DNA of 64,000 bases from Myxococcales bacterium (GTDB lineage: Bacteria > Myxococcota_A > Polyangia > Polyangiales > DASUME01): contig JASGJH010000001.1 of NCBI GenBank assembly GCA_047601445.1, positions 3,424,001-3,488,000 on the forward strand. Direction: 5' to 3'. This document shows, piece after piece, positions 14,982-51,660 of this stretch (its first letter is position 1; every line of letters begins with the position of its first letter). The notes below the pieces were generated by a model that was not told where the DNA came from, did not search any database, and saw only the letters and a list, made by a program, of their open reading frames with translations. The position numbers and the translations under genes were made by a program.

Positions 14982-16004
14982 TCACTGCCGGGGCTTTTGA
15001 GCCAGGAAGAACGCCATCGGCGTGAACACGCCGGCTTCGCCCGAGGCCACCAACGCATCGGCGCCACGATTGAGGAAGTCGCTGATCTCGGCCGTGCCCT
15101 TGGGCGCGATGCGCGCTGTCTCCAGGGTACGCGTGAGGGCCTTCACCATGACCTTGCCGGCCGACGTGCGGCGCAGGCCGGTGTTGGAGAGCTCCTTGCC
15201 AGCCAGGCTCAGGTACCAGGGCACCTCGGGATCACCTTCGATGGCCTTGTCTTGAGCATCGAGCACGTCGAAGCCAGCCGCGCGGAAGCAGTTTCCGGTC
15301 TCCTCGAGCGTCCAGATGTCGGGCAAGCCATTGCCCTCTTCGATGTCACCCTTCATGCGCACGTGGGCCGGGTTGTTGGCGTCGTAGCTGCCGGTGAGGC
15401 ACCACTCGTAGACCGCGATCCTGCCGCCGGGCTTGAGCACGCGGAAGAGCTCCCGGAACAACGCGGTCTTGTCGGGCGCGTGGCAGGTCGCCTCGAAGGC
15501 GTAGACGTGGTCGAACGAAGCGTCGGGCTCCGGGATCTGCATGAAGTCTGCTTCGAGCAGCGAGCACTGGCCATCGAGACGCGCGGTCACGTTGTACTGA
15601 CGGGCCTTCTTCACCTGGTAGGCGTTGTTGTTCACGCCCACGACGGAGGCGCCGCTGAAGCGGGCCATCTCGCGCATGGGACCGCCGACACCGCAGCCCA
15701 CGTCGAGCGCGCGCTGGCCGGCCCCGAGGCCCAGACGCAGCGCGACGTAGTGCTGGTGGCGCTTGATGGAGGCCTCGAAGGGCTCGCCGCGGTAGCGCGG
15801 GGCGAAGTGGAAGGACTCGCCCCAACCGCGCTCGTAGATGTCGGTGACGAGATCGTAGTAGCCGCGCACCATGTCCGTGTAGCTATGCTTGCGAGCGTCC
15901 ACGCTGCCTCCACCGTTGTCGTGGAAAGCGCGGTATTGCCGGACGTCGTCGCGAATATCGCCGCGCGCGTGCCCCGCACGGGTCTCAACCGATGCTGCTG
16001 CCAT
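14982..16004 (-). CDS. smt: Sterol C-24 methyltransferase (ERG6/SMT family)
   Basis: YYDLVTDIYERGWGESFHFAP, LDVGCGVGGPMRE, GVNNNAYQ, YAFEATCHAP, LKPGG...YEW, IEEGNGLP, and Sterol_MT_C-like tail LVASGEAGVFTPM. Confidence 0.9.
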   Translation of the reverse strand: MAAASVETRAGHARGDIRDDVRQYRAFHDNGGGSVDARKHSYTDMVRGYYDLVTDIYERGWGESFHFAPRYRGEPFEASIKRHQHYVALRLGLGAGQRALDVGCGVGGPMREMARFSGASVVGVNNNAYQVKKARQYNVTARLDGQCSLLEADFMQIPEPDASFDHVYAFEATCHAPDKTALFRELFRVLKPGGRIAVYEWCLTGSYDANNPAHVRMKGDIEEGNGLPDIWTLEETGNCFRAAGFDVLDAQDKAIEGDPEVPWYLSLAGKELSNTGLRRTSAGKVMVKALTRTLETARIAPKGTAEISDFLNRGADALVASGEAGVFTPMAFFLAQKPRQ

Positions 16005-16650: not shown

Positions 16651-16672
16651 CACGGCGAGGTCACGCGACCTC
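16651..16672. repeat. Solitary partial copy of the 42-bp palindromic unit
   Basis: CACGGCGAGGTCACGCGACCTC matches the array unit CACGGGGAGGTCACGCGACCTC at 21 of 22 positions; lies between convergent genes. Confidence 0.75.
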
Positions 16673-17039
16673 AACGCTCGTCCTCGCTCGGCGCCCCGCA
16701 GGCGAGCCACTCGGCCAGGTCCTCGCGCTGGGAAAGCGGTGGGTCGTCGGGCCCCGGGGGCATGGAGTCGTTGTCGAGGGCGGCGCGCGCGAAGATGCGA
16801 TCGGCGTGCAAGCGGATGCCGCGCAAGCTGTCGAAGTTGAACTCGCCGGGCGCACCGTGACGATTGGCCGCATAGGGCTGGTGGCAGCGAGTACACCAGC
16901 GGGCCATGAACTCCTCCCCGAAGTTCTCGTAGCTCAGCGAGGTCCCGTTCGGTGGGCACTCGGCGTCGTCGAGCTGCGCAATGGAGCAACCAGCGGCCAG
17001 CAGCATGCCCGCAGTCAACGCGAAGCGATGCGCGCTCAC
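16671..17039 (-). CDS. Small lipoprotein with one c-type heme motif
   Basis: Lipobox LAAGC; CTRCH; distal Met motif SMPPG; LAEWLACGAP. Confidence 0.8.
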   Translation of the reverse strand: MSAHRFALTAGMLLAAGCSIAQLDDAECPPNGTSLSYENFGEEFMARWCTRCHQPYAANRHGAPGEFNFDSLRGIRLHADRIFARAALDNDSMPPGPDDPPLSQREDLAEWLACGAPSEDER

Positions 17040-17746
17040 AGCGCCACCTCCGCGCCGATCAGGGCGAGCACCCCAAAATACAAAGCCGGGCCGCGGTCGT
17101 CGGGCGACATGAACGCGAAAGCTTCGCCGCCGGCGCTGAGCTTGACCTTGCCGAGTTCGAGGATCTGATAGCGAGCCCCCACGTCGAGCTCACCACCCAT
17201 GCGATGACGGATCCCGGTACCGACACCGAAGGGCACGAGCCAGGGCTTCTCACGGGCCACCGCCACCGATTCCTCGTGCTGGTGCACGCCGGAGATGCGC
17301 GCAGTCAAGCGAGTGCGCTCACCGATCCGGGGCGCGATGCCTGCGCCGAAAGCCAAGGTGGTGACCAGGCGCTCGTCCACGTTGGCGTATCCCTCGCGGA
17401 GCTGCGCGCTCAGTGTGATCCAGTCGAACAGTCGCGTGCCGAGCAAGACGCTGCCGCAGCCGAGGTAATCGCCACGCCAACTCGAAGCCCCCCCGCCCAC
17501 GCCGAGGTCCGCGAGTAGTACGTAGCGCGCGGCTTCTTCGGCGAAGACGGGCGAGCTCCAGCCGAGGGCCAGCCAGAACAGCGCGGCGGCCACGGCGCGG
17601 ACGCCGAGCACGCGTTGCGCACGTCCGAACACACGCAACTCCAGCGGCAGGACGCAGAGCGTCCTCCAGAGTCCCGAAAGGCTCATTTCGCAAGCTCCCC
17701 GCGAGGGCATGTCGATTCGCAGTCGCGCGCCGGCGTCGCCTCGCAT
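17036..17746 (-). CDS. Exported probable outer-membrane beta-barrel protein
   Basis: Signal-like segment, amphipathic strands, 4-nt overlap with the cytochrome gene; start supported by the upstream promoter motif. Confidence 0.6.
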   Translation of the reverse strand: MRGDAGARLRIDMPSRGACEMSLSGLWRTLCVLPLELRVFGRAQRVLGVRAVAAALFWLALGWSSPVFAEEAARYVLLADLGVGGGASSWRGDYLGCGSVLLGTRLFDWITLSAQLREGYANVDERLVTTLAFGAGIAPRIGERTRLTARISGVHQHEESVAVAREKPWLVPFGVGTGIRHRMGGELDVGARYQILELGKVKLSAGGEAFAFMSPDDRGPALYFGVLALIGAEVAL

Positions 17747-17752
17747 GGCTTA

Positions 17753-17779
17753 TTGCCCGCTGCGTGCAGGACCGTTCAA
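17753..17779 (-). promoter_or_regulatory. Putative ECF promoter TTGAAC-N15-GGGCAA
   Basis: Minus strand TTGAAC-GGTCCTGCACGCAGC-GGGCAA-TAAGCC-ATG(17746); same motif and spacing as three sites in the ECF/TonB locus. Confidence 0.7.
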
Positions 17780-26745: not shown

Positions 26746-28374
26746 TCATTCCGCGCGCGCGGAGCGAGAAGGAAGCTCGAATCGAAGCCCCGCAGCCAGG
26801 CCCGGAAAGGCCTCGATGCGTGGATTGTCGTGACTAAGCACGACGCGTCCGAAGGGCGCCTGTGAGCGTTCCTGGGAATCGCTGCTGAAGTAAAACTGGT
26901 AGCTCGGCGCCACCATCAAGCCGAGCCCGGGCGTGACGATGAAGGTGAAGGGCACGCGAATTCCCTGCTGGAAAGTGGGTTCGCGCGCGCCGTCCCGATA
27001 GATGTATTCGGAGATGGCATCGACATCGAGGCGGAAGAACCGATACTCCACCGCACGCACGCCGATGCCGAGCGCGGTCACGAAGCGCTGGCCCGCGGAG
27101 CCCGTGCGCACGCCGACGTAGTAGAAGTTATGCACGAGCTCTCCGCCGTGCATGGCGCCGACCAGGATGCTGCCACTCTCGCTGGGGCCCCAGAGATCGA
27201 GATCGGTGCGTCCGTTCTTCACGATGCTCACGATGCCGATGGGGGCGCGATTCTTCTCGGCGTAGTTGAAGAGCCCGAGCTGCAGGCCGTGGGCTTCCTT
27301 GCCGACGATGTTGCCGAGTCCGATCTGCACACCGTGCATGCTGCCCAGCGCGACATTGCCCAGGCTCGCCTGGACGCCCTTCAGGTTGCCGCCCGAGATA
27401 TTGCCCATGCCGCCCTGGAAGCCGCTCACGTCGGAAGTGGCGAAGTTGAGTAGTCCCCCCGAGTAACCGGTGAAGGTTCCGACGTTGAAATTGAGCAAGC
27501 CCGCGCTGGCCCCCGAGCGGTTGTGGAACACCAGGTTGACCAGGCCCACGGTTGCGCCAGCTTGCGCGCCACGAACAACATTGACTAGGCCCGCCAGCAC
27601 ACCGCCCGACGAACGTCCCACCACGTTGACCAATGAAACAAGCACGCCTTGCTGGGAGCCGTACACCGCATTCACGGCGCCGCCAACTTGCACGCCGCAC
27701 ATGAACTCTTGCTGCATGTTGACGAGACCCGAGATCGAGAGGCCTCTCACGCCACGCGAATAACTGCCGAACGCGCCGAAGGAGAGCGCCCGCACCGCCC
27801 GCCGACCGCCCGGCGCAGAGGAGAAGCCGACGTAGGGCAAGAAATCGATGCCCACCGGGATGGTGGCGCGCGGCAGGCAGGCGTTGAAGACCGTCAGCGG
27901 ATCGCGCGCGAGGGGCTCGGGCTCCGCGCTGGCCAGCCGGACCGGCGGGGGTTTCTCGGTGTCGCGCGGTGCAAGGTCGAGCTCCGAGAGCAAGCCTGCG
28001 GCCTCGTTGCGCAGCATGTTCGAGGCCAGGAAGGTCACCGTCTCGATGCCTTCGAGATCGTGGTCGAGCAGCGGAGCGTCGCGCTCTACGCGGAGGCCGT
28101 CGCCACCCTCGAGGACAATGCGCACGCCGTCGGCCCCCAGGGCCTCCACGCGCAGCATGGGTTGATCGGGCGCTGGCTGCGCCAAGCTCGTAAAGCCGAA
28201 ACCGAGCTCAGCCTCGAGCGAGACGCGCAGCGCCTCGGGCGAGAGCACCGCGGGGTCCACATACAAGCCGAGGGCTGAACCGGATTGTGCGCGGGCTCGC
28301 ATCCAAGGAGCGAGACCGAGAACCATCAAGGCCGTCAGCAACAGCCAGGCGCGAACAGGGGCTGAGTTCGACAT
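26746..28374 (-). CDS. Exported protein with LA_2272-like G-x-Q-x-G-x-x-N repeats and probable C-terminal OM barrel
   Basis: Signal peptide; about 11 repeats of ~15 aa (GVQVGGAVN, GVLAGLVN, GFQGGMGN, GVQIGLGN, GLQLGLFN). Confidence 0.75.
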   Translation of the reverse strand: MSNSAPVRAWLLLTALMVLGLAPWMRARAQSGSALGLYVDPAVLSPEALRVSLEAELGFGFTSLAQPAPDQPMLRVEALGADGVRIVLEGGDGLRVERDAPLLDHDLEGIETVTFLASNMLRNEAAGLLSELDLAPRDTEKPPPVRLASAEPEPLARDPLTVFNACLPRATIPVGIDFLPYVGFSSAPGGRRAVRALSFGAFGSYSRGVRGLSISGLVNMQQEFMCGVQVGGAVNAVYGSQQGVLVSLVNVVGRSSGGVLAGLVNVVRGAQAGATVGLVNLVFHNRSGASAGLLNFNVGTFTGYSGGLLNFATSDVSGFQGGMGNISGGNLKGVQASLGNVALGSMHGVQIGLGNIVGKEAHGLQLGLFNYAEKNRAPIGIVSIVKNGRTDLDLWGPSESGSILVGAMHGGELVHNFYYVGVRTGSAGQRFVTALGIGVRAVEYRFFRLDVDAISEYIYRDGAREPTFQQGIRVPFTFIVTPGLGLMVAPSYQFYFSSDSQERSQAPFGRVVLSHDNPRIEAFPGLAAGLRFELPSRSARAE

Positions 28375-29223
28375 TCAGGGCTTCTTGCCGAGGACGTCGA
28401 GCAGGGCTCGCGCTTCGTCGCGACGATAGCCGCCCTTGACCTGCCCCTCTGCGAACGGGCGCAGCGCGCTCGTGGCTTCGGCCTTGCGGCCCAGACGCAC
28501 CAGGCAGATGGCGCGGTTGTAGGCGGCGTCGATGGCGAAGATGCCGTTGGGGAAGCTCTTCGAGTAGCGCTCCCAGAGCGTGAGCGCGGTGGCGTAGTCG
28601 CGCGCCGTGAAGTGCGCGCGGTGGGCTTCGCGGTAGAGCGCGAGATCCGCGCTCGGCGGCCGTGGTGCAGGCGACGCGGGCTCGGCACTGGGCTCGGCGG
28701 GCGCGGGGTCGGCACTGGGCGCTTCGCTGACGGTGGGCACCCGGCTCGGAGCTTCCTGCACCACGCGCGGCTTCTCACGCGAACGCGCGGGACGCTCGGA
28801 AGGCACGCTGGGTACGGAGGCCACGGATTGGGCCGGCTCCGACGCTTCGGGCGTGGGCGCGACGATCGGCTCGGGCGGCGCGACCGGTTGGGGCTCGGGC
28901 GCTGGCACGGCCAACACTTCGGGCTTGGACTGTGGCTTGCGCGCGCGCTTCTCGGCCGGGGCCTCGGGCGCTTGCGTTTCCGCGAGCCACGTCTGAACGG
29001 CGCGCACGGCGCGTTCGATGCCGCCGTTGGTGGCCGCGAAGGCGGAGCCGGCCACGAAGGCAGCGGCCAGCGGTAGCACCCAGCGCAGGGCGCTCGCGCG
29101 GCGCGCGCGCTTGGTGCTGGAGCTCGCCATCAGACGCGCGCGGGTCTCAGCCAAGTCGTCGTCGGACGGCAGGCTCTCCTCACGCAGCGCGCGCGTGGCG
29201 CGTTGGAGCAGGTCGTCATTCAT
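28375..29223 (-). CDS. Putative anti-sigma factor (short cytoplasmic domain, TM, Pro-rich linker, TPR)
   Basis: ATG 29223 overlaps the sigma stop (ATGA); TM WVLPLAAAFVAGSAFAA; TPR YREAHRAHF...FPNGIFAIDAAYNRAICL. Confidence 0.75.
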   Translation of the reverse strand: MNDDLLQRATRALREESLPSDDDLAETRARLMASSSTKRARRASALRWVLPLAAAFVAGSAFAATNGGIERAVRAVQTWLAETQAPEAPAEKRARKPQSKPEVLAVPAPEPQPVAPPEPIVAPTPEASEPAQSVASVPSVPSERPARSREKPRVVQEAPSRVPTVSEAPSADPAPAEPSAEPASPAPRPPSADLALYREAHRAHFTARDYATALTLWERYSKSFPNGIFAIDAAYNRAICLVRLGRKAEATSALRPFAEGQVKGGYRRDEARALLDVLGKKP

Positions 29224-29840
29224 CGCACGCCCCTCCTTTCCAGTTCCTCGCGCAGCTTCTTCTTCGCGTGGAAGAGTCGCGTACGCATCGTGGCCTCGGG
29301 GGCCCCCACGATCTCGCCGGCCTCGCGCGACGTGCGCTCCTCGACCTCGCACAGCACGAAGGCCACGCGCTGATCGAGCGGTAAGGCGTCGAGCGCAGAG
29401 CTCAGGGCCTGCGCCAGGCGCTCTCGGTTGAGGTGGTGTTCGGGAGTGCCAGCTGCCGAGGGCTCGGGTTCACGCGCCAGTCGCTCACCCGCCGCGCGCC
29501 GCCGCGCGGCCGAGCGCACGTGGTGCCGCGCGTGATTGACGGCGATGGAGATCAAGAAGGTCCGCAACGATGCGTTGCCCTCGAAGCGCTGAATCGCCGT
29601 GGGCACCGTCATGAACACTTCGTGCACCAAGTCCTTGGCCGCGTCCGCGTCGCCGACGAGTCGTCGTGCGAAAGCGAGCAACGCCGCAGCATGCTGATCA
29701 TACAGCTCGCCGAGAGCCGCAGCGTCGCCTTCCTGCAGGCGCTCGACGAGCATGCCCTGGGCCGCGACACGGCTGGTATCGGCGACCACCCTCACGGGCG
29801 CGACCATAGCACTGCTGGGCTCGAGGCTCATGACGTCCAT
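29220..29840 (-). CDS. ECF (sigma-70 group 4) RNA polymerase sigma factor
   Basis: Region 2 AKDLVHEVF...SLRTFLISIAVN; region 4 LPLDQRVAFVL...TMRTRLFHAKKKL. Confidence 0.95.
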   Translation of the reverse strand: MDVMSLEPSSAMVAPVRVVADTSRVAAQGMLVERLQEGDAAALGELYDQHAAALLAFARRLVGDADAAKDLVHEVFMTVPTAIQRFEGNASLRTFLISIAVNHARHHVRSAARRRAAGERLAREPEPSAAGTPEHHLNRERLAQALSSALDALPLDQRVAFVLCEVEERTSREAGEIVGAPEATMRTRLFHAKKKLREELERRGVR

Positions 29841-29845
29841 GATTG

Positions 29846-29872
29846 GTGCCCGCTCCGTTCGGGAGTGTTCAA
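29846..29872 (-). promoter_or_regulatory. Putative autoregulatory ECF promoter TTGAAC-N15-GGGCAC
   Basis: Minus strand TTGAAC-ACTCCCGAACGGAGC-GGGCAC-CAATC-ATG(29840). Confidence 0.75.
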
Positions 29873-29894
29873 CCGAATTGGTAAGTGCCCGGGA

Positions 29895-30722
29895 TTACCG
29901 CGAAAACTTGACCGTGATCGGGGCTACGGCGACCACCGCCCGCCCGCTCGTATCGAGGGCCGGTTCGAAGCGCGCGGCCAGCAAGCAGGCGCGCGCAGCG
30001 GGGCCGAAGCCCTGGGACAGCGGGCGCTCGGCGAGCACCGAAACGGCCCTCACCGAGCCGTCGGCGGCCACCGTCACGCGCACGGCCGCGTCGCCGCGAT
30101 CGCTCTGGGCTCGCTCCGGGAAAAAGCCGCGACAAGGATCGAACATGGTCAGCTTCGGGGCTCGCCCCAGCTCGCCGCGAAAGGGCGCGTTGGGGTCCAC
30201 CACGGGCGCAGCTACCGGCGCAGGCTTGGCGGTGCTAGCACCGAGCCCTTCCTTGGCGGTCCCGCCGCGCGCGACCACACCGTATCCGAAGGCACTTCCG
30301 TTGGGGTCGGTCACGAAGCGCACGGGCTCCTGGCTGTCGGGCGTTTCTTCCGGGGCCGTGAGCAGCGGAGCGGCGCTCGCCGCCTTGGGCTCCTCTTTGG
30401 GTGCGCTCGGCGCGCGCGCGCGCACTGGCCTCGGTTCGGGTGCCACGGGCTTGGGCTCTTCGAGCTTGGGTGGAGGCTCAGGGGCCGGAGGTGGCGGTGG
30501 CGCGGGCGGCAACAGCGAAACCTCGGTGACCACCATGGGTCCCTGCTTCGGGGACACCTCAGCGTGGAGCGCGAGCCACGCGAGGCCGGCGTGACACAGC
30601 ACGGCCACCACGACCGATCCGCCGTGGCGCAGCTTGGTCGCAGCGCGCTCTCGAGCATGCGAGCGAAGCGTGGAAGCCGCCTCGGGCACCTGATCGTGTG
30701 TCAAACCCAGGGGGGTGCTCAC
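29895..30722 (-). CDS. tonB: Energy transducer TonB
   Basis: TM with conserved His (VAVLCHA), Pro-rich linker, TonB_C (FPERA...VTVAADGSV...FEPA); downstream of exbBD. Confidence 0.85.
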   Translation of the reverse strand: MSTPLGLTHDQVPEAASTLRSHARERAATKLRHGGSVVVAVLCHAGLAWLALHAEVSPKQGPMVVTEVSLLPPAPPPPPAPEPPPKLEEPKPVAPEPRPVRARAPSAPKEEPKAASAAPLLTAPEETPDSQEPVRFVTDPNGSAFGYGVVARGGTAKEGLGASTAKPAPVAAPVVDPNAPFRGELGRAPKLTMFDPCRGFFPERAQSDRGDAAVRVTVAADGSVRAVSVLAERPLSQGFGPAARACLLAARFEPALDTSGRAVVAVAPITVKFSR

Positions 30723-31126
30723 GGCTGCTTCTCCGCGCCAAAGGCCACCTTGGTGATGCCCACACCGCGCAGCAGGTCGAGCACGTGCATGACCTGTCCG
30801 TGCTCCACCTTGGAAGAAGCGGACAGCACCGCGCGTAGATCCGGAGTGCGCGCGAGCTCGCTGGCCGCCAACCCACGCAGCTGCACGTCCTGCGTGATCA
30901 CCTGGTCGTTGGCGCGCAGCGTGCCGCTCGCATCGATGGTGACCGTGAACATGGTCTGCGTCTCACCGGCGCTGGCGGCCTTGGGAAGATCGAGCGGCAT
31001 GGCCTGGGAGACCACGAGCTTGGCGGTGACCATGAAGATGATCAGCAGCACCAGCGTGATATCGACCAGGGGCGTCACGTTGATGCCCGTAATGTCTTCG
31101 CCTTGATCGGAGGAAGAGGCAGCCAT
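30719..31126 (-). CDS. exbD: Biopolymer transporter ExbD/TolR
   Basis: INVTPLVDITLVLLIIFMVTA. Confidence 0.93.
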   Translation of the reverse strand: MAASSSDQGEDITGINVTPLVDITLVLLIIFMVTAKLVVSQAMPLDLPKAASAGETQTMFTVTIDASGTLRANDQVITQDVQLRGLAASELARTPDLRAVLSASSKVEHGQVMHVLDLLRGVGITKVAFGAEKQP

Positions 31127-31129
31127 GGT

Positions 31130-31844
31130 TCAAGCTCCTTCGCGTGCCACGGAGAACAGACGCAGATCGTGGCCAGACGTGCCCTCCAGGCGGAACACCG
31201 GGGCCTGGTTCGTGTTGGCCTCGAGGTGCACCAAGAGCACGTGCGAGAGCGCGTCCGTGTTGGCGCCGATGCCGCGAATTTTGCGCTGAAAAGCGTTGTA
31301 AGCGGCGACCGCGGGGATGGCCACCAAGAGGCCGATGGCGGTGGCCACGAGGGCCTCTGCGATGCTGTCCATGACGGCGGTGGTGGCCGCCGCGGTGGCG
31401 CCCACGTGACTCGAATTCTTCGAAGGCCAGGATGATGCCCACCACGGTGCCGAACAGCCCCACGAAGGGCGCGTTGTTGCCGAGCGTGCCGAGGAAGCCA
31501 AGCCGTCGATCGAGGCGCGTGCGCTGCACCGCAACGGCGCCGGCCATGGCCTCGCGAGCCGCGTTCACGCCGCGCGCTCCTTCGTCGAGTCCGGCCAGCA
31601 CCACCTGCGCTTCACTGCTGTGCGAAGCCAGGAGCACACCGCGTGCACTCGGCAGGTCGTCGGCGCGCAGATGTCGGGTGAAGTCGCGGGCGAGTAGCTC
31701 GAAGTTTCCCGAGATGGAGAGGAAGAACCAGGCTCGTTCCACGATGATCGTGAAGCTCACGAGCGAGAGCCCGATCAAGAGCCACATCACGGGCGCGGCG
31801 CCCAGGTTCAACATCAAGAGTTTGGTTTGAGTGACGATGTCCAT
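31130..31844 (-). pseudogene. exbB: ExbB/TolQ/MotA proton channel, split by a +1 frameshift near 31412 (possibly a sequencing indel)
   Basis: Frame A reads ...LGTLGNNAPFVGLFGTVVGIILAFEE; frame B continues SHVGATAAATTAVMDSIAEALVATAIGLLVAIPAV. Removing one base in GAATTCGAGT joins them. Confidence 0.88.
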
Positions 31845-31852
31845 GGCGCTGT

Positions 31853-31879
31853 GTGCCCAACGCTAGGCCGAGCGTTCAA
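31853..31879 (-). promoter_or_regulatory. Putative ECF promoter for exbB-exbD-tonB
   Basis: Minus strand TTGAAC-GCTCGGCCTAGCGTT-GGGCAC-ACAGCGCC-ATG(31844). Confidence 0.75.
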
Positions 31880-31901
31880 ATAAAAATCGGCTCCGATTCC
31901 T

Positions 31902-31928
31902 TTGAACGTCCTCACCGTTGGCGGGCAC
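31902..31928 (+). promoter_or_regulatory. Putative ECF promoter for the TonB-dependent receptor
   Basis: TTGAAC-GTCCTCACCGTTGGC-GGGCAC-TAGAGCGCGTC-ATG(31940); back-to-back with the exbB copy, with the palindrome AATCGG-CT-CCGATT between them. Confidence 0.75.
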
Positions 31929-31939
31929 TAGAGCGCGTC

Positions 31940-34378
31940 ATGTCGAATTCAACCCTCGTTCGCCCGCCCTCGCGGGTGAAGCGGCGCTCTCTTGCCCGCG
32001 CCTTGTTCTCTCTGGGTTCCGTGTGGCTGCTGCCAGTGCTGGGGCATGCCCAAGCCGAACCCGAACCCCCCGCCTTGCAAACCCCGGCCGCTCCGAGCTT
32101 GCTGCCTCCGCGGCTGGTGAGCGCTGCTGCTCCGGCGTGGCCGGCCGACGTGGCCCCCACCGAAAGTCCGGTGGTGGTGCTCATCGAGCTCACGGTCGAT
32201 CAAGCGGGCCTGCCGCAGGATCCCGCGGTGATCGAATCGGCGGGCCCAGCGTTCGACGAAGCCGCACTGGGCGCGGTGTCGGGCTTGCGCTTCGAGCCCG
32301 CCACCAAGGACGGCGTCGCGATCTTGGCGCGCATCCCCTTTCGATTCGAGTTCGCGCCACCGCTTCCTCCGGCGCCCGAAATGGAGCTCCCGCCTGCAGC
32401 GGTGGGCCCTGTCGAGGAGTCGCCCGAGCCGCCGGCCGCAGAGGAACCGTTGCTGGCCGACGGTCTGACGCTCGAAGTGCGCGGCGAAAAGCCGCCGCGT
32501 GAGACCACCGTGCATCAGCTCAAGTCCGAAGAGATCCGCGTGATCCCCGGCACCAACGGCGACCCTCTGCGCGCCGTGGAGACCATGCCCGGCGTGGCGC
32601 GTCCGCCCGGCATCGACGGACAGCTCGTGGTGCGCGGCTCGGCGCCCCAGGACACCGCAATCTTCATCGACGGCATCAGCGTGCCCATCGCCTATCACTT
32701 CGGCGGCCTGGTCTCCGTGATCCCGTCGGATGCGCTCACACGCCTCGACTTTCGACCCGGCAACTTCGGCCCCGAGTTCGGCCGCGCGATGGGTGGCGTG
32801 ATCGACATCGGCCTGCGCGGACCGCGCCGTGATCGCTTCGGCGGCGTGTTCCAGCTCGACGTGATCGACGGCCGCGTGATGCTCGAGGGTCCGCTGGGCA
32901 AGCGCACGCGTATGATGTTGGCGGGTCGCCGCTCGTGGGTGGACACCTGGATCGGGCACACCACCGACAGCATCAAGTCTGCACCTGTCTATTACGACAG
33001 CCAGGCCATGATCGAGCACGACTTCAACTCGAAGACCACGGGCCGCGTCATGTTCTTCAGCTCGGACGACCGCATCGCGGTGTTCGCGGATCCTGGCGCG
33101 AGTGATCCCGTGGGTGGCCGCCTGTCCGCGCATCAGGGCTTCACGCGCTTGGCCTTGCGCGTGGATTCGCAGCTCACCGACAAGCTGCGCCTGGCGCAGA
33201 CCTTGAGCTGGGGCACCGAGCGCTACACGTTCAAGTTCGCGGGCGAGAACTCCAATGCGTGGCTCGGCACCTGGCAATCACGCACCGAGCTGCGCCTGCG
33301 CTTGAACGAGTGGTTCTCCGCGGTGATCGGCGCCGACGTGCAGGTGCTCCAGTACGAGACCACCATGCGCATCAAGCCCTACCCGGCCACCGACGAAGTC
33401 GATGGTCCCTACTTCGCGCGCCCGAGCCGCCTGTTCAAGGCCGATGGTTGGGTCACGCGTCCGGCGGGCTACGCGCTGCTCGAGCTCATGCCCACGCGCA
33501 ACTGGCGCATCGTCCCCGGCGTACGCGCCGACTACGGCACCGATACCGGGTTCTTCACCTTCGATCCGCGCGTCACCTCACGCCTCGACGTCCACCCGGG
33601 CTACCCGCGCACCACGCTCAAGGGCGGAGCGGGTCTGTTCCATCAGCCGCCGCAGTACCAGGAGAGCGTGGAACCCTGGGGCACCGCGGGCGTGAAGAGC
33701 AACCGCGCGCTGCACACGAGCTTCGGCATCGAGCAGGAGATCCTGCCGGCCTTCGACGTCACGCTCGAGGGCTTCTACAAGCAGCTCACCAACCTGGTGG
33801 TGGGCTTCGCCAACGAGGACGAAGCCAACAGCTTCGGCGCGCGCTTCGCCAACACCGGCCGCGGCCGAGTCTACGGCGGTGAGTTCATGCTGCGCTATCG
33901 ACCCGACGACAGCCGCTTCTTCGGCTGGATCGCCTACACGCTGTCGCGCAGCGAGCGCGCCAACACCAAGGACGAGCCCTTTCACACCTTCCAATACGAT
34001 CAGACTCACATCTTGAGCGCGCTCGGCAGCTACAAGGTGGGCCGCGGCTGGACCATCGGCGCGCGCTTCCGCTACGTCACGGGCGCACCGTACACGCCCT
34101 ACGTCGGCGGTGTGCTCGACCTCGACGCCGGCGCCTACTCGCCGATCCCGAGCAACACGCCGTACAGCGCGCGGCTCCCGGCCTTCCATCAGCTCGACCT
34201 GCGCGTGGACAAGACGTGGCAACTCCAGCACGCCAAGTTGATCGCCTACCTCGAGCTGCGCAACGCCTACAACCGCCAAAACGCCGAGGCCAAGACCTAC
34301 TCCTACGACTACGCGAACGTCAGCAACCAGAGTGGACTGCCCATCCTGCCGGTGATCGGCCTGCGAGGTGAACTGTGA
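31940..34378 (+). CDS. TonB-dependent receptor with N-terminal TonB_C-like domain
   Basis: Signal peptide; TonB_C-like segment (LTVDQAG...FDEAALGAV...FEPA); plug (DPLRAVETMPGVA, VVRGS, FIDGI); barrel ending RLPAFHQLDLRVDK...GLRGEL. Confidence 0.92.
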   Translation: MSNSTLVRPPSRVKRRSLARALFSLGSVWLLPVLGHAQAEPEPPALQTPAAPSLLPPRLVSAAAPAWPADVAPTESPVVVLIELTVDQAGLPQDPAVIESAGPAFDEAALGAVSGLRFEPATKDGVAILARIPFRFEFAPPLPPAPEMELPPAAVGPVEESPEPPAAEEPLLADGLTLEVRGEKPPRETTVHQLKSEEIRVIPGTNGDPLRAVETMPGVARPPGIDGQLVVRGSAPQDTAIFIDGISVPIAYHFGGLVSVIPSDALTRLDFRPGNFGPEFGRAMGGVIDIGLRGPRRDRFGGVFQLDVIDGRVMLEGPLGKRTRMMLAGRRSWVDTWIGHTTDSIKSAPVYYDSQAMIEHDFNSKTTGRVMFFSSDDRIAVFADPGASDPVGGRLSAHQGFTRLALRVDSQLTDKLRLAQTLSWGTERYTFKFAGENSNAWLGTWQSRTELRLRLNEWFSAVIGADVQVLQYETTMRIKPYPATDEVDGPYFARPSRLFKADGWVTRPAGYALLELMPTRNWRIVPGVRADYGTDTGFFTFDPRVTSRLDVHPGYPRTTLKGGAGLFHQPPQYQESVEPWGTAGVKSNRALHTSFGIEQEILPAFDVTLEGFYKQLTNLVVGFANEDEANSFGARFANTGRGRVYGGEFMLRYRPDDSRFFGWIAYTLSRSERANTKDEPFHTFQYDQTHILSALGSYKVGRGWTIGARFRYVTGAPYTPYVGGVLDLDAGAYSPIPSNTPYSARLPAFHQLDLRVDKTWQLQHAKLIAYLELRNAYNRQNAEAKTYSYDYANVSNQSGLPILPVIGLRGEL

Positions 34379-35247
34379 ACCCCTACAAGAACATGGTCGT
34401 CGGCTTCGTGTTGGCCTTGAACGCCCTCGCTTGCCACGGCTGCAGCGATGACTTCGATCCTTCGTCGCGCGTGGTGAACCTGCGCGTGATCGCGGTGCAG
34501 GCGGATCGCCCCTCGGCGGCCCCCGGTCAACAGGTGCGACTCGACGCGCTCTACTTCGATCCCGAGGGCCGCGCGCTCAGCTGGGCCTGGGGTCTCTGCG
34601 GCAGTGAGGCGTCCTCCTCGGCGCTGTCCTGCGCGCAGACCCTCGACCTGCGGGCGATGAGCATCGGCCAGGCGTCGTCCTTCGAGTTCACCGTCCCCGC
34701 GGCGCCGGCCGGCAGCACGGCCTATGACTCGGTGGGCATCGCCGTGATCGCTTGTCCTGGCACGCTCCAGCCGGGCGACACCGTGGGCATCCCTGTCTCG
34801 TGCGTGGACGCCTCCGGGCTCGCCCTGGATATCAACGCCTTCGAGGTGGGCATGAAGCGGGTCTTCGTGCGCGACCACGATGAGAACCACAACCCGCAGA
34901 TCGAGATGGTGCTGTGGGATGGTGAGCGCTGGCCGGAGGGCGAGCTGCGCGAGGCCGGCTGTGACGCCGACGGCAAGAAGTGCAAGAAGCACAAGCTCGA
35001 GGTGCGCGCCCCGGACGCCCAGGAGCGAGCCACCGATGTCGACGGGCGCTCGATCCAGGAGCAGGCCGTGACGCAGTTCTACGCCACCGGCGGGACCTTC
35101 GAGGACGACGTGCGAGTCGTCGACGAGGCGGACACCACCTGGCAGCCGCGGGCGGAGGACCGGGGCCAGGTGTTGACCCTGTGGTTCGTGGTGCGAGACG
35201 ACCGCGGAGGCGTTACCTGGACCGAACGCCAGGTGCGTGTTCCGTAA
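34375..35247 (+). CDS. Lipoprotein associated with the TonB-dependent receptor
   Basis: GTGA overlap with the receptor stop; lipobox-like ACHGC; LWFVVRDDRGGVTW C-terminus. Confidence 0.75.
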   Translation: MNPYKNMVVGFVLALNALACHGCSDDFDPSSRVVNLRVIAVQADRPSAAPGQQVRLDALYFDPEGRALSWAWGLCGSEASSSALSCAQTLDLRAMSIGQASSFEFTVPAAPAGSTAYDSVGIAVIACPGTLQPGDTVGIPVSCVDASGLALDINAFEVGMKRVFVRDHDENHNPQIEMVLWDGERWPEGELREAGCDADGKKCKKHKLEVRAPDAQERATDVDGRSIQEQAVTQFYATGGTFEDDVRVVDEADTTWQPRAEDRGQVLTLWFVVRDDRGGVTWTERQVRVP

Positions 35248-35440
35248 GTGGCACAGCATCCAGTTCGATCGCATGCGCAGTGTAGGTCTTTACGACACAT
35301 ACGACCGAAGACGCCGCCGGGAGTTGGGGTCCCACCGAAATCAAGATGTCATTCTGGAGCCTTGGAGTCTTACAATCGGATCAGCCGAGCACGCCGGGCG
35401 ACGCGGCGGAGCGGGTAGGTTAGAGGCGGCACTCTCGATC

Positions 35441-37009
35441 GTGGGCATACGTTCTGGTTCGCACATCGCTGCGCGCTTCCCCGTCTTGCGCACCATCAAA
35501 CGGGCGAGCACATGGCTCCTGCTCGGAGCCATGCTGGCCCTGTTGTGCTGCTCGCCTGCCGTGGCCCAGTCGACAGAGGCGCCGCCGCCGAACCGTGAGC
35601 TCGGAGCATCCGGAAATGCGCTCTGCGGATTGATCCTCACCGCCATGCCCACGTGCCCAGTCAAGCGCGTGACGCTCGCACTCACCACGGGCTACGGCTA
35701 CACGGAGAGCATCGGTCCGGTGGAAGGATCCCACAGCCGCCTGTCGGGCGTGCTCGCAGCCTCCTACGTGCCGCTCGACTGGTTGGCCTTGGCGCTCACG
35801 CTCGACGGACGCGTCGATCTGCACCCGGACGACATGCTCGGGAAGAATCGGACGGCCACCGGCGAGCCGAGCCTGACCGTCCGCGCAGGTCGCATGTTGC
35901 CCAAGGGCATGTCCGCGGGCGGCGAGCTCGTGCTGTGGTTCCCCGGCAACGACGCACCGTCGTTCGAGCCCTCCGCGATCTCGGCCGACATGAAGGCGCT
36001 CTTCGCGTGGGCCCCGAGCAAGAAGCGCTACAGCCTGCTGGCCAACCTCGGCTTCCGCTTCGACAACAGTGCCAACAGCGCCCCCGATCTACGCCGGGTA
36101 CGCCCCGGTGACCGCATCGCGCTCGGGCTGAGCGACTCTCACGCCTTCCTGGTCGCGCTCGGCGGGGCCTACCGCGTGGGCGACAAGACCCAGGTCTTCG
36201 GCGAAGTGAGCGCCGATCTCCTGTTCGGCTCCGACGCCCCCTCGCTGTTCAAGTCGCCCTGGCGAGTCAGCGCAGGCTCGCGCTACTTCCTGCCGAACAG
36301 GAAGTTCGTGGCCGAGGCCAATCTGACCGTGGGCTTGAGCGGGCGGCCGGGTGTCGCGCCCACGGATCCGCTGGTGCCCATCGAGCCGCGCATCTCGTTC
36401 AACGTCGGCATTCGCTACAACGCCTGGGAGCCGCCGCCACCGCCGGTTGCAGCGGTCGTGGAGCAGGAGAAGCCGAACGTACTCAAGACCACCGACACCA
36501 TCACGGGCGTGGTGCTCGACGATACCGGTGCGCCGCTGCCCGAGGCCGCGGTGAAGATCGTGGGCACCGACCCGGAGCAGACCGAGAGATCGGCCGTGAC
36601 CAACGCCAGCGGACGCTACCTGCTTACCGACGTTCCCTTCGGACACGTCCAGCTGGAGGCCACCGCCGTGGGCTTCCAGCCGCAGACCTGGGAGACCGAC
36701 GTGTACGCGGGCATGCCCGAGCAGACAGCGCGCACGCTGGTGCAGGAGACCCACGAGGGCGGTCTGCTGCGCGGTCTCATCCGCAGCTTCGGCAGCACAC
36801 CGCTCAACGCGCAGATCACCGTCCTCAACAAGCGCGGCAAGCAGGTCGCGCAAGTGAACACCGACTCGCAGGGCCGCTTCGAGGTTTCGCTGCAGGAAGG
36901 CAAATACCGCGTTGTGGTAAAGGCCACAGGCTACAAGCAGCACCGCGGCGAGATCCAAATCTCGAGCAGCGGCGTGGCGATTCTCAACGTCGACATGCGT
37001 CAGGAGTGA
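35441..37009 (+). CDS. OM beta-barrel with C-terminal carboxypeptidase-regulatory-like (prealbumin-fold) domains; start uncertain
   Basis: Signal peptide AVA-Q; ITGVVLDDTGAPLPEAAV...TNASGRY and TDSQGRFEVSLQEGKY repeats; paralog of 51964-53389. Confidence 0.75.
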   Translation: MGIRSGSHIAARFPVLRTIKRASTWLLLGAMLALLCCSPAVAQSTEAPPPNRELGASGNALCGLILTAMPTCPVKRVTLALTTGYGYTESIGPVEGSHSRLSGVLAASYVPLDWLALALTLDGRVDLHPDDMLGKNRTATGEPSLTVRAGRMLPKGMSAGGELVLWFPGNDAPSFEPSAISADMKALFAWAPSKKRYSLLANLGFRFDNSANSAPDLRRVRPGDRIALGLSDSHAFLVALGGAYRVGDKTQVFGEVSADLLFGSDAPSLFKSPWRVSAGSRYFLPNRKFVAEANLTVGLSGRPGVAPTDPLVPIEPRISFNVGIRYNAWEPPPPPVAAVVEQEKPNVLKTTDTITGVVLDDTGAPLPEAAVKIVGTDPEQTERSAVTNASGRYLLTDVPFGHVQLEATAVGFQPQTWETDVYAGMPEQTARTLVQETHEGGLLRGLIRSFGSTPLNAQITVLNKRGKQVAQVNTDSQGRFEVSLQEGKYRVVVKATGYKQHRGEIQISSSGVAILNVDMRQE

Positions 37010-37082
37010 TGTCGGTTTTTTGTTGACCCGGGGGCCCGGAACGCGGGATGCGAGCATCGGCAACGAGAAGGTGAGGCCGACG

Positions 37083-38213
37083 ATGCTTGGTGGAAGATTG
37101 GGTCAACGCTGGACCCCCCTCAGTCAATCTGCATTGGGTTTGCTCGGACTGGCGCTGGTCAGTGCGGTCGCTGCGTGCGGCGATAGTCCCGACTCCGATG
37201 GCGACACGATGGGCGAAGAGCAGCCCTTCGATCGCAAGTGGGACACGATGCAGTTCCCCGACGCGTTCTGCCGCGATGGGTCCAATGCGAGCATCCTCAT
37301 CAGCAAGAATCCGAACTCGAAGAACCTGATGATCTTCCTCGAGGGCGGCGGTGCTTGCTACGACGACCTGACCTGCCTGGCGAACCCGCCCTCCACCCTC
37401 GTTCTGCCCATGACCGACGGTATCTGGGACGAAACGAAGAAGAACAATCCAGTCAAGGGCTGGAACATGGTCTACGTGCCCTACTGCACCGGCGACTCGC
37501 ACTCGGGCACCAACCCGGCCGGCGTGGTGCCCAAGGTGGCCGGCACCCAGAAGTTCGTGGGCTACACGAACATGGGCATCTTCCTCAAGGCCATCGTGCC
37601 GATGTTCCCGGACATCGAGAAGGTGCTGCTCACGGGCATCAGCGCAGGCGGCTTCGGCGCGTCGGCCAACACGGTGCAGGTGATGAACGCCTTCCCGAGC
37701 AACGTGAAGGGCGTGCTGCTGGACGACTCCGGCCCCGCCATGTCGAGCAAGTACCTGGCGCCCTGTCTGCAGGAGCGCTGGCGCAACCTGTGGGGCCTCG
37801 ACAACTCGATGCTCAAGGACTGCGGCACGGACTGTCCGAACCAGAACGACTTCGTGCTCGACTTCAGCAAGCACCTGGCCAAGACCTATGGCGACCGCAA
37901 GTCGGGCATCATCGAGGCGAGCGAAGACGGAGTGATCACGCGCTTCTTCGGCGTCGGTCAGAACGAGTGCACGGGATCCTTCGTCGGCGCCGGCATCCCC
38001 GGCCCGACCTTCACCGAAGGCCTGCTCGACTTCCGCGCGCAGCTCGCGCCGTACCCCAACTTCTACACCTATTTCCCGTCGGGCGACAAAGCCCAGCAGC
38101 ACACCTGGCTGACCAGCAACTCGCTCTACGAGTACAAGGTCGGCGATGTGGCGATGATCGACTGGGTCACGGCCATCATCAATGGCGAAGCCACGGTCAA
38201 CGCGGGCCCCTGA
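37083..38213 (+). CDS. Pectinacetylesterase/Notum-family hydrolase, lipoprotein
   Basis: Lipobox VAAC; IFLEGGGAC, VYVPYCTGDSH, LLTGISAGG (GxSxG), QHTWL. Confidence 0.88.
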   Translation: MLGGRLGQRWTPLSQSALGLLGLALVSAVAACGDSPDSDGDTMGEEQPFDRKWDTMQFPDAFCRDGSNASILISKNPNSKNLMIFLEGGGACYDDLTCLANPPSTLVLPMTDGIWDETKKNNPVKGWNMVYVPYCTGDSHSGTNPAGVVPKVAGTQKFVGYTNMGIFLKAIVPMFPDIEKVLLTGISAGGFGASANTVQVMNAFPSNVKGVLLDDSGPAMSSKYLAPCLQERWRNLWGLDNSMLKDCGTDCPNQNDFVLDFSKHLAKTYGDRKSGIIEASEDGVITRFFGVGQNECTGSFVGAGIPGPTFTEGLLDFRAQLAPYPNFYTYFPSGDKAQQHTWLTSNSLYEYKVGDVAMIDWVTAIINGEATVNAGP

Positions 38214-38230
38214 AGAGATAGAGCAGCACC

Positions 38231-39817
38231 ATGACCTTGATTCGTGCGCGTGACGCGCGGCAGCGCGGCCGGGCACTCGCGCTGTCGTTGTTCGGACTCC
38301 TCGGTCTGCAAGCCAGCGCGGCCCACGCTGCGGGCTTCGAGCTCAACCCGCCCGGCACGCGCGCCCTCGGCCGTGCCGGCACCGGCGTGGCCGGTGCGGA
38401 CGACGCGCTCGGAGTGTTCCTGAACCCCGCCACCATCCTGGCCAACCAGTCGCGCTTGGAGGCGGCGCTGTCGCTGCAGGCAAACCTGAGCGACACGTGC
38501 ATGACGCGCGTGACGGTCAACGCCACCATCGGTGCCGACGGCCAGGTCGACGGGCCTCAGACGGCAGGGCCGCGTTTGCCCAAGGCCTGCGATGACGGTG
38601 GGTTCGCGCTGATCCCAGAGCTCGCCAACACGTTGCGCCTCGGTGATCGCTTCGCCGTGAGCCTCGGCCTGTTCGCGCCCACCGCACCGAGCATGCAGAG
38701 CAAGTTCGGCAACCCCAAGACGGGTACCCTCGACGGCAAGTCGGGCGAGGACCGCCCCGATCAGCGTACGGGCACGCGCTACCTGATGATGGAGCAAAAG
38801 GCCTTCCAGGTCTTTCCGACGCTGGGTGCTGCCTACGAGCCATTCAAGCAGCTGCGCCTGGGTGCCTCCTTCGGCTGGGGTGTCACCAAGGTCGACTTCA
38901 CGAACGCCGTCTTCTCGCACGCCTTCGTGAACACCACGGCCTATAGCGACATCTCCAATCGCCTCACGGGCACCGACGCCTTCGTGCCTCGCGTGCAAGT
39001 GGGCGCCTGGACCCAGCCGAGCCTGGAGCTGCCGCTCGAGTTCGGTGCCAACTTCACCTGGACCCAGGATGTGCAGCTGCACAACGCCCATATGCGGTTG
39101 CGCGGGCTCAACACGGACATCGTGCCGCCCGAGTTCGCGGCGCTCTCGGACAAGCCCAAGGTCGCGGGCGACTTCGACCACATCGACATGAAGGTGCCGT
39201 CCGTCTCGCAGCTCTCGCTGGGCGCCCGCTACGCCAAGCGCCTGGACACTCCCGTGGACGCTGTGGGCGACCGACTCTCGCGCGAGCGCTTCGACCTGGA
39301 GTTCAACCTCCAGACCACGTTCGGCAAGAACATGGACAGCGTGACCGTGGATGCACCCGCTGGCTATCTGGTCAGGGTGGCGTCTCCGCCGCCCGGCGTC
39401 CTCGCGCCCTTCTCGGTGCCGATCCCCGAGCACGTCGCCATCCCGCACCGCTGGAAGACCCAGTACAGCCTGCGGCTTGGCGGCGACTACAACCCGATCC
39501 CTGGCTTGCTCGGCCTGCGCGCGGGCGTCAGCTACGAGACCAACGGGGTCACCCAGGGGTACCAGAACATCGACTTCACCCCATTTGAGAACGTGGGCAT
39601 CCACCTGGGTGCCACGCTGCGCTTGGCCAAGAAGTTCGATATTTCGCTGGCCTTCGCCCATTTCATGTTCCCTGACGTCAAGGTCGCCGCGGCTGAGGCA
39701 CGGGTGCGCCGGGTCACCAGCGGCCTCAACTCGGTCCAGGACGCGGCCATCGTCAACGCCGGCACGTACACGCGGAGCACCACCAGCTTCGCGCTCCAGC
39801 TCGGCGCGCACTTCTAG
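38231..39817 (+). CDS. FadL/TodX/OmpP1-family outer-membrane transporter
   Basis: Mature N-terminus AGFELNPPGTRALGRAGTGVAGADDA...NPA; C-terminal LGAHF. Confidence 0.85.
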   Translation: MTLIRARDARQRGRALALSLFGLLGLQASAAHAAGFELNPPGTRALGRAGTGVAGADDALGVFLNPATILANQSRLEAALSLQANLSDTCMTRVTVNATIGADGQVDGPQTAGPRLPKACDDGGFALIPELANTLRLGDRFAVSLGLFAPTAPSMQSKFGNPKTGTLDGKSGEDRPDQRTGTRYLMMEQKAFQVFPTLGAAYEPFKQLRLGASFGWGVTKVDFTNAVFSHAFVNTTAYSDISNRLTGTDAFVPRVQVGAWTQPSLELPLEFGANFTWTQDVQLHNAHMRLRGLNTDIVPPEFAALSDKPKVAGDFDHIDMKVPSVSQLSLGARYAKRLDTPVDAVGDRLSRERFDLEFNLQTTFGKNMDSVTVDAPAGYLVRVASPPPGVLAPFSVPIPEHVAIPHRWKTQYSLRLGGDYNPIPGLLGLRAGVSYETNGVTQGYQNIDFTPFENVGIHLGATLRLAKKFDISLAFAHFMFPDVKVAAAEARVRRVTSGLNSVQDAAIVNAGTYTRSTTSFALQLGAHF

Positions 39818-50872: not shown

Positions 50873-51660
50873 TTGGCGCCGTCCTCGATCCAGTCGTGGA
50901 TGAGCTCGATGCTCGCATCGTCCAGGGGACCACTGTTGTCGTCCGGCATGCGTACACCGCAGACCGGGGTTGCCTCGCTGACCTTGTGGATGATCAGGCT
51001 GTTGTCCGGATCACCGGGGATCACGCGCCGATAATCCTCGCCCGAGGCGGCCGGACTGCAGTGAACGCCCGCGGCCTGGACCCCGGCGTCATTGGGCCCC
51101 ACCAGGTTGTCGTAGGCAGCGTCGACACTGTGCATGTCGAGGTGGCCGAGCGACCAGCCGATCATGGCCCAGTCGGCGCCGCCGTCCCCGTCGCTATCGG
51201 GGTGATGGCAGTAGGCGCACCTTGTCCCGATCAGGTGCTCATACACATACCTGAACGTCACGATGCCCGCGTCGTGCGGCCCTGCATCGTGGGGGCCGGC
51301 GTCGCTCGGCCCTGCTTCGATGGGGCCAGCGTCGAAGGGCCCGGCGTCCTTGAGGGCCGCGTCCATGGTTTCGACACTGGCGTCCATATCGTCGCCTGCG
51401 TCGCGCTGCCCAGCATCCGAAGGCGGCGTCGTGGTCCCGGCGTCCGGCGGGTGACCGCCATCGTGATGGGCCACACCCGAGTCCTTGATTTTGCCCTGAT
51501 GGGGCGGGTTGCCCCCATCGCCGCACGCGAAGAGCAGCAGGGCCAACGATGTGTACCCCGCGCTCGCGCGCCCCACGGTCCGCACGCGCAGGCCTGCACC
51601 CGCGCCGTTAACAGCACCTGCGGGCGTGGTCGCCCGCTTCCACGTCGCACCCATCGCCAT
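50866..51660 (-). CDS. Monoheme c-type cytochrome lipoprotein (planctomycete cytochrome C-like); start probably downstream of 51660
   Basis: Lipobox LLFAC; DAG repeats; CAYCH; VIPGDPDNSLII...RMP...IHDWIEDGA. Confidence 0.78.
   Translation of the reverse strand: MAMGATWKRATTPAGAVNGAGAGLRVRTVGRASAGYTSLALLLFACGDGGNPPHQGKIKDSGVAHHDGGHPPDAGTTTPPSDAGQRDAGDDMDASVETMDAALKDAGPFDAGPIEAGPSDAGPHDAGPHDAGIVTFRYVYEHLIGTRCAYCHHPDSDGDGGADWAMIGWSLGHLDMHSVDAAYDNLVGPNDAGVQAAGVHCSPAASGEDYRRVIPGDPDNSLIIHKVSEATPVCGVRMPDDNSGPLDDASIELIHDWIEDGAKW

Follow-up and report, generated by a model that had tools for sequence, protein, structure and literature searches.

A bipartite motif in a myxobacterial genome is very likely the promoter of the extracytoplasmic function sigma factor encoded beside it

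A 64,000-nucleotide stretch of the genome of a Myxococcales bacterium (contig JASGJH010000001.1, positions 3,424,001 to 3,488,000; hereafter the window, in whose coordinates features are given unless stated otherwise) carries a gene for a sigma factor of the extracytoplasmic function (ECF) family (29220-29840, minus strand) and four copies of a bipartite motif, TTGAAC-N15-GGGCA(C/A). Because the motif is conserved before relatives of the sigma gene and changes with one DNA-reading residue of the protein, it is very likely the sigma's own promoter, read by this sigma and its orthologues and autoregulatory, as the initial annotation of the window had proposed. The sigma factor scores 95.7 bits against TIGR02937 (cut-off 42.9) and consists of sigma2 and sigma4 domains only (Pfam Sigma70_r2 and r4_2), ending after region 4.

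The pattern TTGAAC-N15-GGGCA, which was picked after the fact, has exactly four matches of 26 nt in the window (17754-17779, 29847-29872 and 31854-31879 on the minus strand and 31902-31927 on the plus strand) and none in 100 dinucleotide shuffles; a looser version with one mismatch has four, with a shuffle mean of 1.0. With the sixth base of the hexamer included, site 1 (29846-29872, minus) precedes the sigma gene, site 2 (31853-31879, minus) precedes exbB, site 3 (31902-31928, plus) lies back to back with site 2 and precedes a TonB-dependent receptor gene, and site 4 (17753-17779, minus) precedes a beta-barrel-like gene paired with a cytochrome gene. The hexamer is GGGCAC at the first three sites and GGGCAA at site 4, and an ATG follows it after 5, 8, 11 and 6 nt, respectively, with no Shine-Dalgarno-like word inside these gaps. 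The sites, the fixed 15-nt spacer and the short gaps all stand as first described, but the spacer, initially called unrelated sequence, is not wholly so: at its edges, 99 orthologous sites have a purine after GAAC in every case and a C before the hexamer in 86. Scans for Sigma-70 promoters and terminators between 25500 and 42500 stayed at chance level. A short palindrome between sites 2 and 3 was dropped, as it is not kept in relatives G004 or G002.

Across the host genome (9.5 Mb, 66% GC) the raw count of the pattern at spacer 15 is 13, which is unenriched relative to the 1 to 17 matches seen with spacers of 8 to 23, yet nine of the 13 are non-coding and every other spacer from 5 to 30 gives 0 to 2 non-coding matches. 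Coding and non-coding sites were split by our own, crude, codon-usage gene calls, and raw spacer counts are informative only once coding sites are set aside. The flat raw count, and the arrangement of sites 2 and 3 as an inverted pair, speak for other readings, in which the motif is an operator bound by a different protein or has arisen by chance in DNA rich in GC. Either is highly improbable, as the motif is directional and asymmetric, is tied to one sigma clade, covaries with a DNA-reading residue and sets the position of the start codon, all as described below; no other regulator family was noticed conserved beside it in the loci examined, though no systematic search was made, and there is no Fur-box-like match in the window with three mismatches allowed. 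Control by iron and Fur was rejected on that last result.

Conservation of the promoter was examined among 271 distinct full-length ECF sigmas in 300 loci, with the clade taken as those scoring at least 200 bits with the clade profile and having 300 nt upstream (n=147), and a comparison set of 115 ECFs scoring below 150 bits. The clade is defined by protein score and not by the motif, but many of the 22 seed proteins are motif-bearing. GAAC-N15-GGGCAC lies upstream of 99/147 clade sigmas (52 exact, 33 with one mismatch and 14 with two) and of 7/115 other ECFs (none exact, one with one mismatch and six with two). A spacer of 15 is found in 80 of the 147, and other spacers from 10 to 21, or the opposite strand, give at most six, in agreement with the rigid spacing originally claimed. 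Named relatives of the sigma are from Polyangiales, Sandaracinaceae, Kofleriaceae and Sorangium cellulosum So ce56, which makes the host likely to be a member of Polyangiales, and the clade is present in 103 of 301 genomes of the order; of 251 genomes sampled from the phylum, 13 contain the tetratricopeptide repeat (TPR) part of the putative anti-sigma, and a metagenome scan recovered few clade members (4/80 above 45% identity). The So ce56 orthologue lies at about 6,361,200-6,361,800 of NC_010162.1, and its locus (L036) has four motif copies (9490-9730 and 11415), two in tandem before the sigma gene, one divergent, and one before the partner gene described below. In ten other genomes the exact pattern was often no commoner than a reversed-pattern control, and the sites used from them were therefore limited to those tied to orthologous genes.

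The residues of the sigma that would contact DNA agree with the motif. When aligned to Escherichia coli RpoE, His106 is equivalent to Asn84, and Arg186, Thr187 and Phe190 to Arg171, Ser172 and Phe175. Dataset S3 of Todor 2020 (PMC7776599) links Arg171 to -31C (0.88) and Thr172 to -34G (0.74), which fits GAAC as the -35 element, and Table S1 of the same study gives Asn84 as the tested reader of -13 and -12. Across 99 own sites (those directly before the sigma genes; the poorly matching locus L048 was left out), no other column shares as much mutual information with hexamer base 3 (0.56) and base 4 (0.42) as residue 106. His (64), Arg (11) and Lys (9) all occur with G at base 3 (84/84) and Asn always with A or T (15/15), such that the residue predicts the third base in 99/99 sites. 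On a FastTree tree built without column 106, residue and base each switch four times, on the same branches. Held-out sites follow the rule in 47 of 49 cases (His 29/29, Lys 5/5 with GGGGAC, Asn 2/2 and Arg 11/13), and the best dinucleotides in Dataset S3 are GC for Arg, GA or GG for Lys, and CG or TG for Asn (Todor 2020, PMC7776599). The -35 residues therefore predict GAAC and residue 106 covaries with -13/-12, with exceptions that are given below.

A more complex situation arises from the presence of three clade sigmas with cognate anti-sigmas in the host genome, since one of the two paralogues (host ~543,000 and ~7,106,000) could be the main reader of the sites or an equal one, with a shared regulon; both paralogues carry Arg106, which elsewhere is found with GGGCAC in 8/11 own sites. 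However, each paralogue operon has a TGAAC-N15-GGAGAC site of its own, a pattern with three non-coding matches at spacer 15 and none at spacers 12-14 or 16-18, and His106 accompanies a third-base G without exception in 64 own and 29 held-out sites. We consider reading by a paralogue quite unlikely, and the His106 sigma of the window remains the preferred reader. The paralogue promoters are at 4453-4478 of locus L309 and in L308 (host ~544,950 and ~7,107,530), with ATG at the 8th and 11th base after the hexamer, and a third GGAGAC site is at host position 3,966,492; promoter insulation among the three paralogues is possible.

Because Asn84 reads -13/-12, GGGCAC is placed at -15 to -10, with standard spacing and the A three bases later at -7, where A is present in 71/99 own sites. 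The core -10 element is predicted to be GCAC plus the A at -7; what was first described as an unusual GGGCAC -10 is thus retained as a promoter element, but as a hexamer spanning -15 to -10 of which only GCAC belongs to the core. At site 1 (scoring 26.5 bits on a matrix derived from sites in other genomes) TTGAAC is then -36 to -31, GGGCAC -15 to -10, and the predicted +1 is 29837-29836. A different register of the same promoter has GGGCAC at -14 to -9, with GGCAC mimicking a CGTA-type element whose -11 base is relaxed. The hexamers GGGTAC, GGGAAC and GGGGAC differ at base 4, in keeping with a -11 base that is relaxed when small residues occupy the Lys56 position, and the nominal +1 would fall exactly at the 9th base. 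This register is nonetheless unlikely: bases 3 and 4 covary best with the Asn84 equivalent, assigned to -13/-12 in Table S1 of Todor 2020 (PMC7776599), Thr78 comes no higher than eighth for base 4, the peak of A three bases after the hexamer fits -7, and the two start positions counted from the -10 base in that study correspond to the 9th and 10th bases.

With the hexamer at -15 to -10, the placement of ECF start sites in Todor 2020 (PMC7776599), at -1 or +1 when numbered from the -10 base, predicts +1 at the 9th or 10th base after the hexamer, and not 5-7 nt after it as was first supposed. A pyrimidine-purine step peaks at the 9th base (47/99, compared with 8-36 elsewhere), and in-frame start codons of sigma genes total 9 at positions 1-8 and number 19 at position 9 and 8 at position 10 (27/99 at the two), with two out of frame at position 9 and none at 10. 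After thinning to 65% identity, 11 of 36 have an in-frame start at position 9, compared with a mean of 1.35 at positions 11-30. Partner genes carry the motif in 28 of 77 cases, and of these 28 the start codon is at positions 9-10 in 18 and at 8-13 in 25. The ATG of exbB is at the 9th base in the host (31844) and in relatives G004, G002 and G172, and its mRNA is predicted to be leaderless. The receptor ATG is at the 12th base in the host (31940) and at the 10th-11th in G004, G002, G172 and G018, and a near-leaderless mRNA with a 2-3 nt leader is predicted, its 5' end in the host falling at 31937-31938.

The initial annotation had all four mRNAs as leaderless or near-leaderless, which holds as a prediction for exbB and the receptor but not for the other two, as the sigma ATG at the 6th base and the ATG at 17746 at the 7th probably precede +1. 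The true sigma start is likely 29831; orthologous sigmas begin at the 15th-17th base after the hexamer with ATGAG. For the gene behind site 4 the likely start is 17686, which a GGGGAG word precedes. Part of the regulon is probably translated from leaderless mRNAs. In Table S2 of Todor 2020 (PMC7776599) leaderless ECF promoters make up 0.2-5.2% across 11 clades, whereas here a start codon coincides with the predicted +1 in 27% of sigma genes and 64% of partner genes, a comparison qualified by differing definitions and by a Table S2 without a deltaproteobacterial row. A related signal is seen across the host genome. TAnnnT begins 12-15 nt ahead of an in-frame ATG 447 times, against about 25 at each other position and 8-18 for ATGs out of frame; the arrangement is present in 445 of 6049 called genes and drops sharply at -11, although the gene calls are crude and many of the TA dinucleotides belong to TAA or TAG. 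Starts of the leaderless type are put at about 6% of genes genome-wide. Many housekeeping mRNAs of this myxobacterium are thus likely to be leaderless or to have leaders of 0-3 nt, which makes it less likely that such starts set this regulon apart.

Besides the unenriched raw count, several observations weigh against the motif being the promoter of this sigma clade. No motif is found directly upstream of 48/147 clade sigmas, and only 25 of 49 motif-less sigma genes lie directly behind another gene, compared with 21 of 99 motif-bearing ones; the paralogue operons show that the promoter can sit at the head of the operon. The sequences are kin, and the independent events number four and not 99. 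Arg106 also occurs with GGAGAC (2/13 held-out sites and both paralogue operons of the host), and the residue rule is therefore not strict. In Dataset S3 of Todor 2020 (PMC7776599) the best dinucleotides for His are AC (0.29) and CA (0.21), with GC at 0.07, in one tested background, and the same study links an acidic residue at Lys56 to -11A, whereas here the -11 A is invariant with Thr, Ser or Ala at the equivalent position. Some of the GTG starts at position 9 give long extensions and may be spurious (for example in L036).

The reach of the promoter in the host was assessed with a matrix built from 74 sites of His and Arg sigmas in other genomes, at a threshold of 20 bits. Twelve matches were found, 11 of them non-coding, and ten shifted spacers give 0 or 1 non-coding match; all four window sites are recovered (site 4 with 20.3 bits), and seven are elsewhere in the genome. 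One of these precedes a gene for a beta-lactamase-family lipoprotein with ATG at the 9th base, a link also seen in G002, and another a Cys-rich DUF7107-like lipoprotein gene, a link also present in L048. Two more precede genes for paralogous Pro-rich membrane proteins (44% identical over 171 aa); these two and the Cys-rich lipoprotein gene have Shine-Dalgarno-led leaders. The remaining three have no clear gene: one lies near a gene for a Cu/Zn superoxide dismutase, one runs antisense to an adjacent gene, and one is upstream of a ruvA-like gene. There is no Rfam match at any of the orphan sites 864190, 8309041 and 5041212. We note that locus L302 (host 864190-864298) holds a second back-to-back motif pair, one site of which is directed into the upstream gene on its opposite strand, where no open reading frame is evident, and possibly drives an antisense or small RNA. 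We also note that a Pfam-less Pro-rich family with two hydrophobic helices and a C-terminal aromatic residue (L304, L305 and L309 2922-4445) is a recurrent target and neighbour of the clade.

The regulon of about ten genes initially outlined is therefore larger, with about 11 promoters in the host, and differs in its make-up. Three promoters are arranged around exbB in the same way in G004, G002 and G172, but homologues of exbB, exbD and the receptor adjoin the sigma gene in only 1/17 wide clade loci, and judged by this distribution the TonB genes are lineage-specific cargo and not the core of the system. The gene pair behind site 4 recurs in 21 of 29 other loci, but none of the 29 has the motif within up to 1.5 kb upstream, and site 4 is best regarded as a candidate lineage-specific promoter.

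What is conserved with the sigma is a set of two further genes. The gene after a clade sigma is a homologue of 28375-29223 in 140/143 cases (median 262 aa, with a hydrophobic segment in 111). In the window this gene (minus strand, 282 aa; its start overlaps the sigma stop) encodes a short N-terminal domain, one hydrophobic helix, a Pro/Ala linker and a conserved C-terminal TPR at residues 186-282, and the homologues share the conserved N-terminus, linker and TPR; its position, coupling and topology make it very probably the anti-sigma. The next gene (26746-28374, minus, 542 aa), the envelope partner, has a signal-peptide-like start (by eye), a conserved alpha/beta domain (~33-132), a Pro linker, LA_2272 repeats and a C-terminal all-beta domain. 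A partner with the conserved domain of about 100 residues is found within 4 kb in 17/17 wide clade loci and 0/46 wide non-clade loci, although the profile was seeded from 11 such loci and the 17 are not fully independent; both partner copies in the host adjoin clade sigmas, the third clade operon lacks one, and the C-terminal part varies among loci.

The predicted partner structure (mean predicted local distance difference test score, pLDDT, 80.7) has an alpha/beta domain, a disordered linker, beta repeats and an all-beta C-terminus, whose nearest fold matches, small outer-membrane barrels, are weak. Foldseek with the whole protein gave no match at E 0.001 or better; its 30 Atlas feature neighbours, the top ones from Myxococcota, have no Pfam family common to all, and in one structural neighbour cluster, from Bacteroidota, 28% of members carry STN. 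The N-terminal domain alone (pLDDT 87) resembles TolB-N, CsgG and PqiC at Z 7.0-7.5, below the decisive level: the best match is a protein of unknown function (Z 7.7), followed by TolB (7.5) and CsgG (7.2), with a root-mean-square deviation of ~3.2 over 90-96 residues and none at Z 8 or above. Co-occurrence and topology suggest that the anti-sigma TPR may bind the partner domain.

A plausible scenario is that the one-pass TPR anti-sigma, encoded alongside, keeps hold of the sigma until an envelope signal, likely relayed by the partner's conserved periplasmic-type domain, frees it. The freed sigma would amplify its own expression and turn on secreted and envelope genes, including those for the TonB system, the beta-lactamase-family lipoprotein, the Cys-rich lipoprotein and the two Pro-rich membrane proteins, with transcription starting 9-10 bases after the hexamer and often on the start codon itself. 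That the partner is the signalling input is a tentative proposal, and on the types of target a purpose in envelope maintenance is an evenly balanced one. Equally tentative is a fuller picture, of a three-protein trans-envelope system of Polyangia and Kofleriaceae without FecR or a TonB-dependent receptor, in which the TPR on its long Pro linker would dock onto the conserved domain at the N-terminus of a surface or membrane partner that can be exchanged, and the sigma would be freed once this contact is lost, with a largely leaderless envelope regulon, a -13/-12 code rewired at least four times, and paralogues insulated within one genome.

FecI-FecR-FecA systems comprise an ECF sigma, a one-pass regulator and an outer-membrane protein, with a FecR-domain anti-sigma and an STN-bearing TonB-dependent receptor. 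The system described here shares the three kinds of component, and in the host a TonB system adjoins the sigma; however, its conserved neighbour is not a TonB-dependent receptor. Signalling of the FecIRA type was rejected, as the anti-sigma has no FecR domain, the receptor has no STN, and a receptor is adjacent in 1/17 wide loci. The DdvS-DdvA pair of Myxococcus xanthus (PMC11506125; PMC6061681) also joins a myxobacterial ECF to a transmembrane anti-sigma with periplasmic TPRs, but DdvA, which controls CBASS/CRISPR, combines a CHCC zinc domain with a TPR-CHAT domain, whereas the anti-sigma here is ~260-280 aa, lacks a CHAT match and shows no Cys/His zinc motif in the consensus of its N-terminus; a DdvA-type anti-sigma was thus rejected. 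The nearest architectural analogue in the group descriptions of Casas-Pastor 2021 (PMC7826278) is ECF21 of Bacteroidetes, in which the +1 gene encodes a one-pass anti-sigma and an outer-membrane beta-barrel is either part of the same protein or encoded at +2. ECF21 belongs to another phylum, has the promoter GCAACC/CGTCT, is described without a TPR plus separate periplasmic partner domain, and has no studied member.

Those descriptions list the myxobacterial groups ECF210, ECF216, ECF220 and ECF267 with 'promoter motifs not conserved' and, in the text searched, contain no occurrence of 'GGGCA'. By group description, ECF210 is the best candidate for this sigma, sharing taxa with the clade (Sorangium, Sandaracinus and Chondromyces), with its genomic context undescribed there. 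ECF216 has zinc-finger anti-sigmas or an EF-hand/carboxypeptidase context, ECF220 has C-terminal extensions, and ECF267 has a TPR-bearing +1 protein, as here, but with FecR-like anti-sigmas and kinases; membership of these three was rejected, as the sigma has no extension and the anti-sigma neither a zinc motif in its consensus nor a FecR match.

The promoter is of a known kind, sharing with general (group 4) ECF promoters an AAC-containing -35, C at -31 followed by 17 nt and then -13, autoregulation, A at -7, and +1 at -1/+1 from the -10 base (Todor 2020, PMC7776599; Casas-Pastor 2021, PMC7826278), and differing in its GGGCAC -10, invariant -11 A and conserved GG at -15/-14. The -10 element, the natural code switch, the leaderless tendency and the three-part core were not found described, and searches of the open-licence literature, which leave subscription journals mostly uncovered, turned up no publication dealing with the motif or with leaderless mRNA of myxobacteria. 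Because So ce56 sigmas were included in Todor 2020 (PMC7776599) and its Datasets S1/S2 hold the ECF-promoter collection, the motif may be recorded there. This then provides a promoter, regulon and set of regulators for an ECF clade of myxobacteria, the published groups to which it might belong being listed without a conserved motif; the cultured S. cellulosum So ce56 has an orthologue. The four joint switches of a residue and a promoter base also amount to a natural experiment on the amino acid-base code of ECF sigmas. Leaderless translation is predicted to be frequent in this lineage of Gram-negative predators, and the clade yields a compact, apparently orthogonal sigma-promoter family (GGGCAC, GGAGAC, GGACAC, GGTGAC and GGGGAC) for myxobacterial or synthetic gene circuits.

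Among the other genes of the locus, site 2 is the predicted promoter of exbB (31130-31844), exbD (30719-31126; Pfam ExbD) and tonB (29895-30722; Pfam TonB_C, TIGR01352), all on the minus strand. In this assembly exbB is split by a single-base frameshift near 31412, outside any homopolymer, which is either a real lesion or an assembly error; the gene is intact in G004, G002 and G172. Site 3 is the predicted promoter of the operon of the TonB-dependent receptor (31940-34378, plus), which has an N-terminal TonB_C-like domain; its identification as the myxochelin receptor MxcH was rejected (NF038079, 60.1 bits against a cut-off of 925). Closely packed downstream genes (34375-39817, plus) for a lipoprotein, a carboxypeptidase-regulatory-domain protein, a pectinacetylesterase-like protein and a FadL-like protein probably share this operon, judging from their spacing. 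Behind site 4 (16671-17686, minus) are the 216-aa beta-barrel-like gene and the gene for a monohaem c-type cytochrome lipoprotein.

Elsewhere in the window, we note a topoisomerase-RecQ-HRDC fusion (15-3392, plus) and a sterol C24-methyltransferase-like gene (14982-16004, minus; Pfam Sterol_MT_C, E 2.6e-21), a eukaryote-type sterol enzyme in a bacterium. Two further spans, 49604-51660 (minus) and 52346-58386 (plus), carry SO2930-like dihaem cytochrome genes, and genes for a FecR-domain protein beside a Ser/Thr kinase with a myxobacterial C-terminal domain together with a CBM9-like protein.

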